This document shows, one piece after another, positions 6,001 through 12,000 of a stretch of 64,000 bases of DNA. The stretch lies in the NCBI RefSeq assembly GCF_056712565.1, contig NZ_CM160072.1. The stretch is one strand, 5' to 3'. The position numbers are program-made. Position 1 is the first letter of the stretch, and the number at the start of each line of letters is the position of its first letter.

Positions 6001-9000
6001 ATCAGGTAAAGATGTTTGACGGTGAAGGTAAATATTATTAATTTCTGCTTTAGATAATTGTGCGATACCTGTGCCAGCGTCAGTTAAACCATCTCGAAAT
6101 TGATAACCAGAAGTTAACTGACCTCTTAATCCTCGGAATGTTGCAGCTGTATGGTTATAATAATTTTTGAAACTTAGTGCTTCAGTAGATAATTTATCTA
6201 AATTAGGCGTAACTGAAAATGCTCTTGGTTTGGCATTACCCATAATTTCAGATGAAAATCCCTCAGCAAATATTACAATAACATTACGGCCTTTGAAACT
6301 GTAGTTGTTTTCTATAGGGTTAATAAAAACACTTGTTTTTAAAAAGAATTTCCCTGCATCTCCGATCTTCTTACTAGGCTTAAAGGTTTGCTGTAAATAG
6401 AACAATTTTGCTGTTTCATAAAAAGCATATACTGGTCCCGCACTTATGAAAGAACACACGAGCAATAATACTATACAGAGAAGGTTGAATTTATAATATT
6501 TAATACGCTCGGTTAGAGCCCCTGAAGGCAAGGTAATGAATGAAATTATAATAAACAAAATAAAAACAAAAAAAACTTTAATTACCTCACCAATACCCAA
6601 GGATTCAATTTCTGCAGCATTCGACAAGGCAAGAGGCATCAAATATTGTCCTGAACTAAATAGCGACGCTGCCTGCACACCTAAAATGGAAAGATAAATT
6701 ACCCATAAAATATTACTTACAAACTTTCTCTTTATCAGAAAGATTGCCACACTTATAAATGTGTATTCAATAGAAAATAAAAAAACACTATCCACCCTTC
6801 CAGAGTAAAGTAAAATACTCAAAAAAATACAGAAAGGCAAAATCATTCTAATAATAATTATAAAGTTCATGTTGAGTTAAACCATTTTATTTAAAATCTT
6901 TAATGCTATTAATTCAGCATTGCATCACCAGGGCAAGATTACGAAAGCCAGCTCCCCGCAAAAACTGATGCGAGGTAGTCTCTGTCCATATCTGCTCTTC
7001 TCATCTTACATCTTAACCCAGCCTTGAATACTTTATGTTTCGTCAAAATATTAATGCCGATATACCTGATCCCTGAAAATAATTCTGCTGCAATTCCTCT
7101 TCTTATTTTGCAGTGGTCTTCATTCATTACCACGCCCTGACGCCAGTGCAGCTTATTTTTCACGTGCCAGTGATTTCGAATCACTGTCGCAAACTTCTCT
7201 GCTGTTAAACCCGCAGAACTGATATAATATCTGACCGTCATTTCAGGCTCCTTCTTTTGTTCTGCTATTATTGACCGAAAGGAGACTGCCACGCATAATT
7301 TTATCAGTCCTTTCCATTAAAACGTGAAATCAATAAGTTTATCAGGAACATCGCAAACAATATGAAGACGGATGTCTTCTCTGCCGTGACTCTGTTCACT
7401 TATTTCGTAACTGCCATGCTTTGGATTATTTAATTCTTTCAGCGGGGATTATCCCTCAATGGCTTTATTAAGCCGCCCCTAATTTACTTTTACAGCGAAT
7501 AAATAATCACCTCCCCCGTTTTTGTATCTTCTCTGCAATATCTTTCTGGCAACCCATCGCATCAGTTGTGATAATTTTTCCTTTAATATCCATATGTTAA
7601 GAAGTTCTGGGATAGCTGTGACCTCATTGAATTTCTCATCCGTCTTGATCTGTCCGATGACCAGACTGTGCATTGTTGAGAACGCACTAATGACATGAAT
7701 CGCTCCCTTGCGGCGACTCTTGTCATAAGAATGCCGGAGTGTTTTTCCATCAATTGCGATGACGTCTTTATCATATGAAGAATAACAATCACGCATCCAG
7801 TTAATAAAGCACTCGTGAAATTTTGCAGGACTGATACAGGATACAACTCTGGCAATGGTATCGTGAGCAGGAATACCATGTTCAAAATCACCATATTGCT
7901 TCAAAAAAACGAGATGTGTTTCCCCAAAATCCTCTATATTTCCCAACCTTCTGCACCAAAAATAACGGCACAAATAGTCAACAGTAGAATATCCGACAAT
8001 TTATGTTCCACTTTCCAGGCTTGTCTGTAATCAGGGATAATAGAAATATGTTCCATCACTTTTTTAAGTTATAATTTTCATCTCTTAAGTAACATAATGA
8101 AATTTTATATTATTAATTAAATAGTTTTATTTAATTAAGAGCATTTTAATTATTGAATATATAATGCGTATTATTTAACAAAATAATAAGCGTTACATTT
8201 TTTACTCTGATAGCTATATAAGGCAGGGCAAGATTACGAAAGCCCGCTCCCCGCAAGGACTGACGCGAGATAGTTTCTGTCCATGGCTGCTTTTCGCATC
8301 TTACGTCTTAACCCTGCCTTGAATACCTTATCATTCGTTAAAATATTAATAGCGATGTGCCGTATCCCTGAAAATAATTCTGCGGCGTTTCCTCTTCTTA
8401 TTTTGCAGTCGTCTTCATTCATTACCACGTCCAGACGCCAGTGCAGCTTATTCTCCACGTGCCAGTGGTTTCGGATTGCTGTGGCGAACTTCTCTGCGGT
8501 TAAATCAACAGAACTGATATAATATCTGACCGTCATTTCTGGCTCTTTCTTTTGTTCTGCTATTATGGACCGAAAGGAGACTGCAACGTATAATTTCTTC
8601 AGTCCTTTCCATTCAAATGTGAAATCAATAAGTTCATCAGGGACATCGCAAACAATATGAAGACGGATTTCTTCTCTGCCGTGACTCTTTTCACTAATGG
8701 CGTAACTGTCATGTTCTGGATTATTTAATTCTTTCAGTGGAAATTTTTCCTCAAAGGCTTTATTAAGCCGCCCCTGATTTCCTTTTACAGCGAATAAATA
8801 ATCACCGCCCTGTTTTTATATCTTCTCTGCAATATCTTTCTGGCACCCCATCGCATCAGTTGTGATGATTTTTCCTTTAATATCCAGCATGTTAAGAAGT
8901 TCAGGGATAGCTGTAATTTCATTGGATTTCTCATCCGTCCTGATCTGTCCGATGACCAGACTGTGCATTGTTGAGAACGCACTAATGACATGAATCGCTC

Positions 9001-12000
9001 CCTTGCGGCGACTCTTGTCATAAGAATGCCGGAGTGTTTTTCCATCAATTGCGATGACGTCTTTATCATCTGAAGAATGGCAGTCACGCATCCAGTTAAT
9101 AAAGCACTCGTGAAACTTTGCAGGACTGATACAGGATACAACTCTGGCAATAGTATCGTGAACAGGAATACCATTATCAAAATCACCATATTGCTTCAAA
9201 AAATCGAGATGTGTTTCCCCAAAATCCTCTATATCTTCCCAGCCTTCTGCACCCGAAATAACGGCACAAATAGTCAACAGTAGAATATCCGATAATTTAT
9301 GTTCCACTTTCCAGGCTTGTCTGTAATCGGGGATAATAGAAATATGTTCCATCAATTTTTTAAGTTCCATTTTGTTCTCCTTAATTATGTAAGGAGTATT
9401 TGATCATGTATAAGCAATAAAAAACAGCTTTAGGTAATAAGGGATATCTCAATTTTTAAACATAAAATGCGAATTATTTAGTACAAAAAAGCAGCGTTAC
9501 GTGATCTTTCCCTGCTATATAAGGTCAATTATATTATTGTTAATGCGTTTAATAAATAGATTCATACATAGCAGCTATATGCCTCCAGTTATACATATCT
9601 TCAGCATAATTTTTTAAATCTAATACTCGACATTTAAGATTTCCAAAAGACAAACTTTCTGCTAATAAGCTAAGTTGTTCAGAATCATTAAAGTAATGAG
9701 CTAAATTGTTAGTTGTGTAACGATTAAAGTCACAATCGAAAGCAAAAATAGGAATATTAAAATGCATCGCTTCAACTAAAGAAGGGTTTGTTCCACCAGC
9801 CGAGTGTCCATGAATGTATGCAAGACAATTTTTTCTTAGTTTATAAAGCTCTTCAATATTATAGTTAGGTTCTAGTAGGGTGATATTTGGATAGTTTGAA
9901 TAATATTTTTTTAGCTGGCGTCCATACTCGCTGTTATCCCAATTACCCATAAATTTAATTTTTTTATCTGTATTAATGAAGGCATTCAGAATCATTTCTA
10001 TATTATTCTCAGGCTCTATCCTACAAAGCCCCAAATAATAACCTTCTTTTTTTTGATCATTGTCTATCGGTGTACTAAGATTAGTGGCATGATCTCCGCC
10101 ATAAGCTATAACTACACTTTTTTTCTTGTACTTATTTTCCACATAATCAGCTATTGCTTGATTATCTGAAATGATAATATCAGCTATTCTAATAGATATC
10201 GCCTCAGATATTTTAAGAAATTTCTTAGCAAACGTTCCCCATTTATTTCTACGCCATTCAAGCCCATCAATATTGACAATAATCTTTGATTTTGAAAATA
10301 GTTTATAAATTGGTAGAAATAAACAACCAGACACCCCCAATATTAAAACAACATCTGGCCTTTTGAATAAACAAATAATTAAACACATAATATCATAAAT
10401 TATGCTAGAGACGCCATTGGCATTTATCGGCAAATAGATTAATTCTGCATTTTTATAATTTTTAAATTTTTTATCATATTTTTTTGAAGAGCAAAATATC
10501 TGATATTGTATACCATCAGATTGATAATCAATTAGATTCTGAACAAGTGATTCGAACCCACCATAACAAGCAGGAACACCCACTGTGCCAACTACAGCGA
10601 CCGTCTTCATATTATTTTCTTCCATTTAAACACCTTGAGCCTAACTATTTTCGTATTAAAAATTATTGAACATACCATCACGTACAGCTTTAAAACAAAC
10701 CTTCAGTGAATTTAATTTTTCTTTCGAATATAAAATTTCAAATACAACATTCTTTGTCGCATGAAAAAAAGCATGATAACGATACTTGAAGCTATAATTT
10801 GAATGCAGCATTAAGTATATTGCATTGCGTATTTTATAAAAATTTCTGAAAGAATTATGTATTGTAACAGATCGACCAGCAAAAATTTTCTGCCCATACC
10901 CAAGTTCATGAGAAATGATGACTGATGGTGTCTGAACAATAATCATATTATTAGCTAATGCACGCCAACACCATTCTGTATCAACCCAGTCTATAAAGAG
11001 TTTTTCACAAAATGGTCCGACGACGCGCCATGCTTCACGAGACATTAACATCCCAGAAGCAATAACATGCGAGGGATAAAGATCATCGTCTACTTCACTA
11101 CATATAACTTTTGTACTCGTAAAAATATTTAGGCTGACTGACGGATGCATATAATTTGAACGATGGTCTTTAAAAAAAGGAGAAGCACAAGCAACATTTT
11201 TACCTTTTTTATTATTTTTCGTAAATGTACTCTTAAGTTTTTCAATAACATCGCTAGGAAAGCAAGTATCCTGATCTGAGAAAAATAAATAGTCAAACTC
11301 TTTTGCTTCCAGGCCCTTCTTAACACCATGGTTCTGAGCAAATGCAATGCCTTTGTTTTCCGAAAGTAAAATAATTTCAAGGTTATTAATACTGATATTT
11401 TTTATCAAATCACTATTATTTGAGCCATTATCTACAAGAATTATTCTCTCAACTTGTGGGGCTAAAGAGTTAATACATTCCGTCAATCGAATAATTTCCG
11501 GGTTGTAAGTAACAATTATAGCCAACACCTTAGCCTTACACATTAATCACTCCAAAGACCATATGATAATAGTATGTTAGATACAATAAAATTAACACTT
11601 TGCAAAAAATAAAATAATAATTCTTTTTTTGCTTAATAAACACCCCAATGGTTAGCATAAGGAAAAAATACATTTCCAAAATACGGAAAGCCATAACAGG
11701 TAGAGAGAAAAGGCTAAAAGTCACGTATTGCATGACACCATAACAAAAGAAAAGCCTTAAATTTCTCCTTTCATTTCCAATGCTTGATATGTAACTAATA
11801 ATAAACCAGGAAATAGCGGTAAGGGATAATGAATTTATTAAATTTACACCAGCTTCATTTCCTATTTTTTGTCCCACTCCAAAATTTCTTATAAAAGATA
11901 TGATCTCTTTTCCTTCTCCTGAGATCGCAATCAAAACAAGAATACTGAAACAAAAATAACCAAGGCGTCTTATTTTTGTTGAATAGACAAAAGGATATAA

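Follow-up and report, generated by a model that had tools for sequence, protein, structure and literature searches.

H-repeats, which belong to the ISAs1 family of insertion sequences, are reputed to be immobile. IS1358, an H-repeat-like member of the same family in the rfb regions of Vibrio cholerae O1 and O139, has been implicated in the gain of new serogroup DNA. The RhsC array of Escherichia coli K-12 (H-rptC1-C2-C3; ybfQ-ybfL-ybfD) is built from pieces that correspond to nt 1-381, nt 1-1291 and nt 25-913 plus 1225-1291 of the element. In Salmonella enterica group D2, an H-repeat remnant lies at the D1/E junction (Xiang, Hobbs and Reeves 1994, via PMC3715488). Elsewhere, IS elements near the gnd end of the cluster have been described that delimit segments swapped between serogroups (2015, PMC4379981). 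The occurrence of H-repeats and ISAs1-family elements in O-antigen clusters, their role at recombination junctions and the existence of tandem H-repeat arrays are all established already. Papers on the O2/O50 cluster (PMC5293828, PMC4732683, PMC4013041 and PMC7685785) do not discuss the elements considered here.

Results

The 64-kb stretch of DNA that we analysed (hereafter the window) covers an E. coli O2/O50 O-antigen cluster, which reads on the minus strand. Two ISAs1-family (H-repeat/ISEc1) elements, referred to as copy 1 and copy 2, are arranged head-to-tail on that strand as homologous units of ~1.29 kb and sit between a DUF1972 glycosyltransferase gene and a sulfatase/LTA-synthase-family gene (the sulfatase-like gene below). 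The features of this region are:

3700-5106, minus strand: gnd, on the high-divergence side of the recombination boundary
5242-6870, minus strand: sulfatase/LTA-synthase-family gene (542 aa; Pfam Sulfatase, E = 1e-27), the gnd-proximal passenger of a shared module
6871-6928: 58-bp spacer from the start codon of the sulfatase-like gene to the right end of copy 1
6929-8213, minus strand: copy 1, an old, heavily degenerate H-repeat (ISAs1 family)
7517-7940, minus strand: interval of copy 1 with three frame-breaking indels (-1 at ~7940, -1 at ~7594, +1 at ~7517)
8214-8223: 10-bp direct repeat CTATATAAGG, left-hand member, interpreted as the duplicated target of copy 2
8224-9514, minus strand: copy 2, a complete 1291-bp ISEc1 (canonical H-repeat)
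8816-8818, minus strand: CAA (Gln185) to TAA, which interrupts the DDE domain and is the sole lesion inactivating copy 2 (single internal stop in the translation)
9515-9524: 10-bp direct repeat CTATATAAGG, right-hand member, followed by TCAATTATATT
9549-10625, minus strand: DUF1972 glycosyltransferase gene, the last O2-specific gene, on the low-divergence side of the boundary

The repeat spacing between the units is 1294-1296 bp, in agreement with the two head-to-tail homologous units of ~1.3 kb described in an earlier interpretation of this DNA (the sequence-only reading), which had also rightly recognized degenerate H-repeat/ISAs1 material inside the O-antigen locus. RefSeq already annotates three transposase pseudogene fragments here, in dozens of O2 genomes. 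The whole 2678-base arrangement is matched at ≥99% by 65 records and is 100% identical in each of 30 complete genomes among the matches listed. Scanning of positions 6700-9700 for promoters and terminators gave counts not above those obtained with shuffled sequence, and we therefore make no claim on expression of the sulfatase-like gene; an Rfam scan of positions 5000-11000 matched nothing.

Copy 2 is complete. Its ends read CAGGG...CCCTG, its 1291 bp equal the length of K-12 H-rptB and lie within the 1.2-1.5 kb of ISAs1-family elements, and of the 21 positions in its terminal inverted repeats, CAGGGCAAGATTACGAAAGCC and CAGGGAAAGATCACGTAACGC, 16 match. A gap-free alignment with K-12 H-rptB (yhhI) gives 96.0% identity. 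Identity rises to 99.0% across the entire length with the ISEc1 that ST131 strains carry at ydcC (97-100% in the first 200 nt), compared with 96.7% for the element of the O10 cluster and 88.1% for copy 1. The transposase frame runs from 9370 to 8234; its N-terminal half matches PF13808 (DDE_Tnp_1_assoc, E = 3e-34) and PF01609 (DDE_Tnp_1), its C-terminal half matches PF01609, and YhhI aligns with it at 97.9% over 378 aa. The stop at codon 185, labelled 'internal stop' in RefSeq, results from a C to T change at alignment column 700 that is specific to copy 2, and copy 2 and the ydcC copy are set apart by 13 differences, most of them found in copy 2 alone. Together with its flanks, the ydcC-locus copy is essentially confined to ~554 genomes, and the best 60 of the matching records include many labelled ST131. 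A search within O2 genomes for a donor of copy 2 found none.

Copy 1 has an intact right inverted repeat (CAGGGCAAGATTACG at 6929) and a degenerate left end (...ACTCTG at 8209, then ATAG), where the repeat has decayed to 11/21. It is roughly equidistant from the seven other copies compared, with 87-89% identity (87.3-88.7% in the matrix), and is 88.4% identical to the ISEc1 reference; in its first 200 nt, identity to the other copies is only 66-70%. Outside O2 strains, no E. coli genome was found with a match to copy 1 above ~92.5%. The start codon is lost (ATG to ATA), and global alignment to copy 2 and K-12 H-rptB places single-base deletions near 7940 and 7594 and a one-base insertion near 7517. 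The reading frame followed by tblastn with YhhI switches from 2 to 1, 3 and 1 along the element (80% identity across three frames), and in-frame stops occur at codons 199, 209 and 253. Under the ISfinder convention that elements sharing at least ~95% nucleotide identity are the same IS species, copy 2 falls within ISEc1 and copy 1 does not. The most fitting name for copy 1 is degenerate ISAs1-family relative of ISEc1, not ISEc1 proper.

Since neither copy is able to make transposase, both are fossils. They are not, however, the same frameshifted remnant that the sequence-only reading saw in each: copy 2 is free of frameshifts and has a single nonsense codon, and no lesion is common to both. 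Nor has copy 1 lost its first ~50 codons, as had been supposed; positions 7934-8059 still hold that DNA, which only the frameshift near 7940 separates from the remainder. The motif 'gcgttac', formerly taken as flank, belongs to the terminal inverted repeat of the element. Homology of the units held up in pairwise alignment at 88% overall and 90-97% in most of the body, but fell to only 66-70% in the first 200 nt.

Within the 64-kb window the 10-mer CTATATAAGG is found at two places and no others, directly against either end of copy 2, and the chance of such a 10/10 flank match is ~2e-6. Target duplications of 8-10 bp would be expected for the ISAs1 family (ISfinder). The O2-B (PSUO2; L003) and O2-C (APEC O2-211; L012) clusters carry the 10-mer once, in the order ...ACTCTGATAG-CTATATAAGG-TCAATTATATT, with a copy-1-type end adjoining; the flank TCAATTATATT to the right of 9515-9524 is the flank that follows the lone 10-mer in both clusters. 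No target-site duplication was found around copy 1, whose flanks TCAGCATTGCATCAC and CTATATAAGG are unrelated. The search for inverted repeats and duplicated targets that had been proposed earlier gave, for copy 2, inverted repeats and a perfect 10-bp direct repeat that may be a duplicated target, and for copy 1 a decayed left repeat and no duplication. No target duplication was seen at ~seven other ISEc1 copies (yhhI, ydcC, L004, L005, L006 and two plasmid copies). ISAS1, the founding family member, is reported to make direct repeats upon insertion (PMC3661141), and this general statement was all that the literature yielded on the length of ISAs1 duplications. H-repeats are nearly absent from plasmids (25 of 72,556 records, mostly mislabelled pieces of chromosome).

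Divergence between O2 clusters jumps at the elements. Genes on the glycosyltransferase side are 97.8-98.9% identical between the arrangement of the window (O2-A) and O2-B, the two common O2 variants; for the glycosyltransferase gene itself, identity is 97.8% and dS 0.078, and its 34-bp flank is identical at 34/34 positions. On the other side, the sulfatase-like gene is 87.9% identical (dS 0.49), and dS reaches 0.52 for gnd. The 542-codon frame of the sulfatase-like gene is open in the window, O2-B, O10 (L004) and an O10-like cluster (L005), with dN/dS of 0.13-0.19. Of 5426 E. coli genomes, 160 have the gene, which falls into four allele classes. In O2-B, O10 and the O10-like cluster, it is preceded by the same 58-bp spacer and then a variously decayed H-repeat end, so that the junction could indeed be recovered by comparison with other E. 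coli clusters. Judging from these alignments, the spacer and the right end of copy 1 are an old junction common to several cluster types. The module of element, sulfatase-like gene and gnd is common to O2 and O10-type clusters; the O10-type serogroup genes are unrelated.

Presumed new copies of the element lie 0-4 bp from the old left end in the window and inside old copies, at three different positions, in O2-B, O10 and an O10 variant. They are also found in the K-12 RhsC array, all cases are head-to-tail, and TATAG is present in the sequence adjoining the new left end in three of them.

The element of O2-C is chimeric. Across windows of 50 columns, identity to copy 1 is 88-97% over nt 1-250, and the start of the element matches the O2-B fragment (~190 nt) at 86-97%. 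Past nt 250, most windows show 96-100% identity to the element of O10, so that copy-1 type gives way to O10 type at ~nt 200-250. The sulfatase-like gene of O2-C shares 99.7% identity with that of O10. This variant turned up in the search for a genome with copy 1 alone. An O2-A-type genome of that kind, the predicted immediate ancestor, was found in none of 5426 complete genomes at ≥95%. Taken as a comparison of sequences, these data support the view that the H-repeats mark a real recombination boundary, with ancestry changing at the element. The jump in dS, the module shared with O10 and the O2-C chimera support the earlier proposal that the elements mark the point at which the cluster and the sulfatase-like gene meet.

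Discussion

The pair very probably represents two independent ISAs1-family insertions of different age, with no duplication involved. An old H-repeat, now copy 1, would have inserted upstream of the sulfatase-like gene long ago, and in the O2 ancestor its left end would have adjoined CTATATAAGG and the glycosyltransferase flank. Later, in the O2-A lineage (ST95 and other O2:K1 ExPEC/APEC), a canonical ISEc1, now copy 2, would have transposed into CTATATAAGG in the same orientation, its target site 0-4 bp outside the left end of copy 1, and duplicated the 10-bp target. A single nonsense mutation would then have inactivated copy 2. In all likelihood, recombination in or at the H-repeat has repeatedly brought the O2-specific genes into new combinations with differing alleles of the segment comprising H-repeat, sulfatase-like gene and gnd. 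We infer both the origin of the 10-bp repeat through transposition and this order of events; what is observed directly is the structure of the region, how the sequences relate, the clusters with a lone 10-mer, the jump in divergence and the chimera of O2-C. Against this history weigh the missing target duplications at the other ISEc1 copies, the reputed immobility of H-repeats and their scarcity on plasmids, the failure to find an O2-A genome with copy 1 by itself, and the lack of a donor among the O2 genomes searched. The lasting effect of both elements is portable homology.

An alternative that we regard as quite unlikely is that the old element was truly duplicated first, and that gene conversion from a canonical ISEc1 at another locus subsequently replaced the whole of the copy nearer the glycosyltransferase gene. 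This history would account for the shared 10-mer as well as the canonical sequence of copy 2, and the O2-C chimera demonstrates that homologous exchange between H-repeats does occur at the locus. However, the conversion tract must span all 1291 bp to both termini, restore the canonical left inverted repeat and remove ATAG; with only 66-70% identity in the 5' region, there is no homology there to prime conversion. Copy-1 alleles are absent from copy 2, a tract of them having been sought without success among the 13 differences from the ydcC copy, and the postulated intermediate occurs in no genome.

It is highly improbable that unequal crossing-over or slippage duplicated one degenerate H-repeat on the spot, together with its 10-bp flank, and that point mutation then drove the copies apart, a form of the tandem duplication of a degenerate element that the sequence-only reading had proposed. 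The copies do share one orientation in head-to-tail order with a period of ~1295 bp, and both are pseudogenes. The 10-mer also follows both copies, as it would after duplication of a unit of element plus 10-mer, and the repeat alone is therefore no proof of transposition. Yet the copies are not mutual closest relatives: identity between them is 88%, whereas copy 2 reaches 99.0% and 96% with elements located elsewhere. Over the first 200 nt at the 5' end, the two copies diverge by 30-34% and by many indels, and they have no inactivating lesion in common although copy 1 has at least seven. Neither ATAG nor the degenerate end seen in copy 1 is present in copy 2, a complete 1291-bp element between 10-bp repeats. 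The identity matrix and the absence of common lesions led us to reject a duplication followed by divergence.

Assembly or sequencing artefacts, be it a collapsed or expanded repeat or errors creating the stops, can practically be dismissed even though 1.3-kb repeats are a classic source of misassembly, as the same 2678 bp, with the nonsense codon and all indels, recur at 100% in the 30 complete genomes listed, which were sequenced independently and come from several continents and hosts, and copies differing by 12% are not collapsed reads of one unit.

Targeting of their own ends is known for IS30 or IS21 and, to our knowledge, undescribed for the ISAs1 family. It is conceivable, though doubtful, that a resident H-repeat is a preferred target for ISEc1/H-repeat elements, which would enter at it or within it in matching orientation. 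Such a preference would account for the head-to-tail positions of presumed new copies described above. If so, the perfect 10-bp duplication of copy 2 would be rare direct evidence of recent transposition in E. coli by a supposedly immobile element.

Overall, the feature is ordinary and matters little beyond bookkeeping. The corrected reading replaces a duplication by what are very probably two insertions of different age, and the chimeric H-repeat provides a clean example of exchange between O2 and O10 clusters. O2 strains have at least three gnd-proximal arrangements, which could affect PCR or in silico typing at the gnd end.

Comparison with known systems

Copy 2 shares length, ends and gene with ISEc1 (yhhI in K-12, ydcC in ST131). 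Unlike the ISEc1 copies whose flanks were examined, it keeps a flanking 10-bp direct repeat, and its codon 185 is a nonsense codon. Like the pair in the window, the K-12 RhsC array consists of H-repeat/ISEc1 units that follow each other head-to-tail in one orientation, with little or no spacer and most of them defective. Its pieces, however, abut directly, two of them are truncated and they reside in an Rhs element, whereas here a full-length pair with a putative 10-bp duplicated target between its members resides in an O-antigen operon. IS1358 is a different element in a different genus and has no tandem pair.

The exchanges near gnd described in PMC4379981 change glycosyltransferase genes and serogroup, whereas here it is a module with the sulfatase-like gene that is swapped, and the genes for the serogroup remain those of O2. 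Closest in setting is Salmonella group D2, where, as here, an H-repeat lies at the boundary of O-antigen segments of different ancestry and has been proposed to mediate their joining. The D2 element survives only as a remnant, and replicative transposition from a plasmid is the model put forward for it, whereas the window contains two full-length elements. Both marks of a D2-type IS-marked junction are found in the present locus, a change of ancestry at the element and a recombinant crossover inside it. Unlike in D2, the exchange is demonstrable here, in O2-C, as a homologous crossover within the element.

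Two H-repeats of probably different age in the O2 O-antigen cluster

The window comes from an E. coli O2 strain and covers the his-wzz-ugd-gnd, O-antigen, galF and colanic-acid region; the minus strand carries the O-antigen operon. In operon order, RefSeq annotates the O2/O50 flippase and polymerase, a family-2 glycosyltransferase and a DUF1972 glycosyltransferase, followed by three ISAs1-family transposase pseudogene fragments, an 'LTA synthase family protein' and gnd. Bases 6871-9548 (2678) are matched at 100% identity in each of 30 complete genomes listed and at ≥99% in 65 records, including O2:H1 HM670, APEC O2:K1:H7 and O2:K1:H4, and ST95 isolates.

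Features of the H-repeat region
9549-10625, minus strand: DUF1972 glycosyltransferase gene
8224-9514, exactly 1291 bp: copy 2, inverted repeats matching at 16/21 positions
6929-8213: copy 1, right repeat intact and beginning at 6929, left repeat decayed (...ACTCTG at 8209, then ATAG to 8213)
5242-6870, minus strand: sulfatase/LTA-synthase-family gene
3700-5106, minus strand: gnd

Element boundaries were set by alignment with the K-12 RhsB H-repeat (yhhI element, 1291 bp, ends CAGGG...CCCTG). The two homologous head-to-tail units described in the sequence-only reading are real, with a spacing of 1294-1296 bp, but they are not the same frameshifted remnant. Copy 2 aligns without gaps or frameshift to the K-12 element and carries a single internal stop (CAA to TAA, codon 185, at 8816-8818). 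Copy 1 had been thought to lack its first ~50 codons; these are present at 7934-8059, cut off by a one-base deletion near 7940. Copy 1 further lacks a start codon, is interrupted in frame by stops at codons 199, 209 and 253, and carries an insertion near 7517 and a second deletion near 7594; the two copies have no lesion in common. Neither copy encodes a transposase, in copy 2 because the nonsense codon splits the DDE domain, and both are fossils. The 6700-9700 interval held no excess of promoter-like or terminator-like matches over shuffled sequence, and an Rfam scan of 5000-11000 gave no family match.

Elsewhere in the window (16572-17039, minus strand), an fdtC-like hexapeptide acetyltransferase gene reads through 155 codons without interruption from a TTG start. 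In HM670 and PSUO2, RefSeq gives this region as two incomplete pseudogene fragments; the split is probably an annotation artefact caused by the gene's unusual start.

Probable insertion beside an older element

Sequence identities from a seven-way alignment of H-repeat copies place the two units far apart. Copy 2 is 99.0% identical to the ISEc1 (the canonical 1291-bp H-repeat) at the ydcC locus of ST131 strains (13 differences, 0 gaps), 96.7% to the O10 cluster element and 96.0% to K-12 yhhI, but only 88.1% to copy 1; copy 1 itself matches all the other aligned copies at 87.3-88.7%. Over element nucleotides 1-200 (left repeat and leader), copy 1 and copy 2 share 66-70%, copy 2 and the ydcC element 97-100%. 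Across 5426 genomes the copy 2 type is ubiquitous at 95-99% identity; copy 1 found no match above ~92.5% outside O2 strains, and its 5' region found matches of 60-80% only, save for one 65-genome group at 80-90%.

Within the 64-kb window a 10-mer, CTATATAAGG, is present at 8214-8223 and 9515-9524 and nowhere else, abutting both ends of copy 2 (chance of such a 10-bp flank match ~2e-6). Target duplications of the ISAs1 family are probably 8-10 bp long. ISAS1 is reported to create direct repeats (PMC3661141). Taken with the sequence relationships, the repeat is most simply read as a target-site duplication: a canonical ISEc1 (copy 2) would have inserted beside an old element (copy 1), duplicating 10 bp. 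No target duplication was seen at the flanks of ~7 other ISEc1 copies.

That a duplicated copy was later overwritten end to end by gene conversion is improbable, as the tract would need to match the element termini exactly and would cross a stretch where the sequences are too dissimilar for conversion to be primed. Most of the changes that separate copy 2 from the ydcC element occur in copy 2 alone, and a search among them for copy-1 alleles found no patch. The old tandem duplication first proposed, in which one degenerate element was duplicated in place and then diverged, would likewise put the 10-mer after both units if element and 10-mer were copied together, so that the repeat alone is not decisive, but under this model each copy should be the other's closest relative and old lesions should occur in both, and with both predictions failing we give the model hardly any credence. 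The paired elements are genuine and unremarkable, and their origin should now be read as two insertions differing in age rather than as a duplication.

ISEc1 is present in 5342/5426 E. coli chromosomes (median 5 places; roughly 25,000 H-repeat copies across the 5426 genomes) and in 25/72,556 plasmid records, several of them chromosome-sized 'plasmids'. This scarcity on plasmids and chromosomal ubiquity fit mostly vertical inheritance and rare mobility.

In three independent ISEc1 insertions at the O-antigen locus, TATAG or TATAGA lies close to the new left end, at most a few bases away. The sites lie outside the left inverted repeat at window 9515-9524, 11983-11991 in PSUO2 (L003) and 11019-11030 in an O10-like cluster (L006), and the flanks read CCTTATATAG, CGGTTATAGA and GATATAGAGGA in element orientation. 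The motif might point to preferred targets, or be a product of the AT-rich context alone.

Other alleles of the site

The sulfatase-like gene occurs in 160/5426 genomes, in four identity classes. Cluster arrangements around it differ, and copy 2 is confined to the window's own type, O2-A. The predicted immediate ancestor, with O2-A flanks and copy 1 alone, was absent among complete genomes.

Arrangements from glycosyltransferase to sulfatase-like gene (flank, DUF1972 glycosyltransferase-side DNA)
O2-A (window, ~66 genomes): flank, 10-mer, copy 2, 10-mer, complete copy 1
O2-B (PSUO2, 64 genomes): flank, CTATATAAGG once, ~190 nt copy-1-type left end, different full ISEc1-like element holding an intact 378-codon gene
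O2-C (APEC O2-211 and FT130): flank, single 10-mer, copy-1-type left end, chimeric element
O10 (L004): full ISEc1 directly against 357 bp from the right end of an old element, then a 95%-identical sulfatase-like gene

In PSUO2 (NZ_CP011915.1, 10692-11982 and 11983-12168) the ISEc1-like element sits within a copy-1-type element, ~190 nt from the latter's left end. The inserted element has a strongly diverged right terminus and an ISAs1 transposase gene that the annotation gives as intact, at 378 codons; the same record lists wzy as frameshifted. The O10:H32 cluster (L004, NZ_CP042892.1) has a further decayed left-end-like stretch, GATGATCTTTCCTGG, at 12346-12378, just past the left end of the full ISEc1, and parts of the cluster are flanked by two IS5 copies. 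The O10-like clusters L005 and L006 contain more nested H-repeat pieces. The gnd end of O10 clusters has taken repeated IS hits.

A recombination junction

The proposal that the elements mark the junction with the sulfatase-like gene is borne out by a jump in divergence across them, a right-end junction common to several cluster types and the O2-C chimera. Between O2-A and O2-B, the O2-specific genes on the glycosyltransferase side are 97.8-98.9% identical and the 34-bp flank matches at 34/34; on the far side, identity is 87.9% for the sulfatase-like gene and 90.7% for gnd. Synonymous divergence rises from 0.078 on the glycosyltransferase side to 0.49 (sulfatase-like gene) and 0.52 (gnd). A 58-bp spacer and element right end upstream of the sulfatase-like gene are common to O2-A, O2-B, O10 and an O10-like cluster, types whose serogroup-specific genes are unrelated.

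The O2-C element (L012, NZ_CP006834.2, 4965-6241; also FT130) is chimeric. Up to column 250 it belongs to the copy-1 type (88-97% vs copy 1 in 50-column windows; 86-97% vs the ~190 nt of the O2-B fragment), and past column 250 it is 96-100% identical to the full element of the O10 cluster in most windows. The sulfatase-like gene that follows matches that of O10 at 99.7%. O2-C is a clean O2 x O10 recombinant and a third O2 cluster arrangement, in which a crossover within the H-repeat joined an O10-type gnd-proximal module (H-repeat, sulfatase-like gene and gnd) to O2 genes.

The sulfatase-like gene is intact, with 542 codons, in four allele classes (O2-A, O2-B, O10 and O10-like). Together with dN/dS of 0.13-0.19 across O2-A, O2-B, O10 and an O10-like cluster, the intact frame shows that selection maintains the gene. 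The O2-A genome H87 (NZ_OZ546967.1) has an IS1A inserted within the gene, which is therefore dispensable, at least in this isolate. A review describes the O2 structure as a rhamnose/GlcNAc main chain with a Fuc3NAc branch and mentions no phospho-substituent, which is what a sulfatase/LTA-synthase-type enzyme would add.

Comparison with known systems

Papers on O2/O50 clusters (PMC5293828, PMC4732683, PMC4013041, PMC7685785) make no mention of the window's H-repeat pair; the pair is already present in genome annotations. Mobile elements are on record in 23/178 serogroup clusters (PMC7685785), and in E. coli O-antigen clusters IS elements bound right-end segments that have been replaced (PMC4379981). 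The Salmonella group D2 cluster has the remains of an H-repeat at its D1/E junction (PMC3715488). K-12 RhsC, too, carries a head-to-tail H-repeat array, consisting of nucleotides 1-381, then 1-1291, then 25-913 and 1225-1291.
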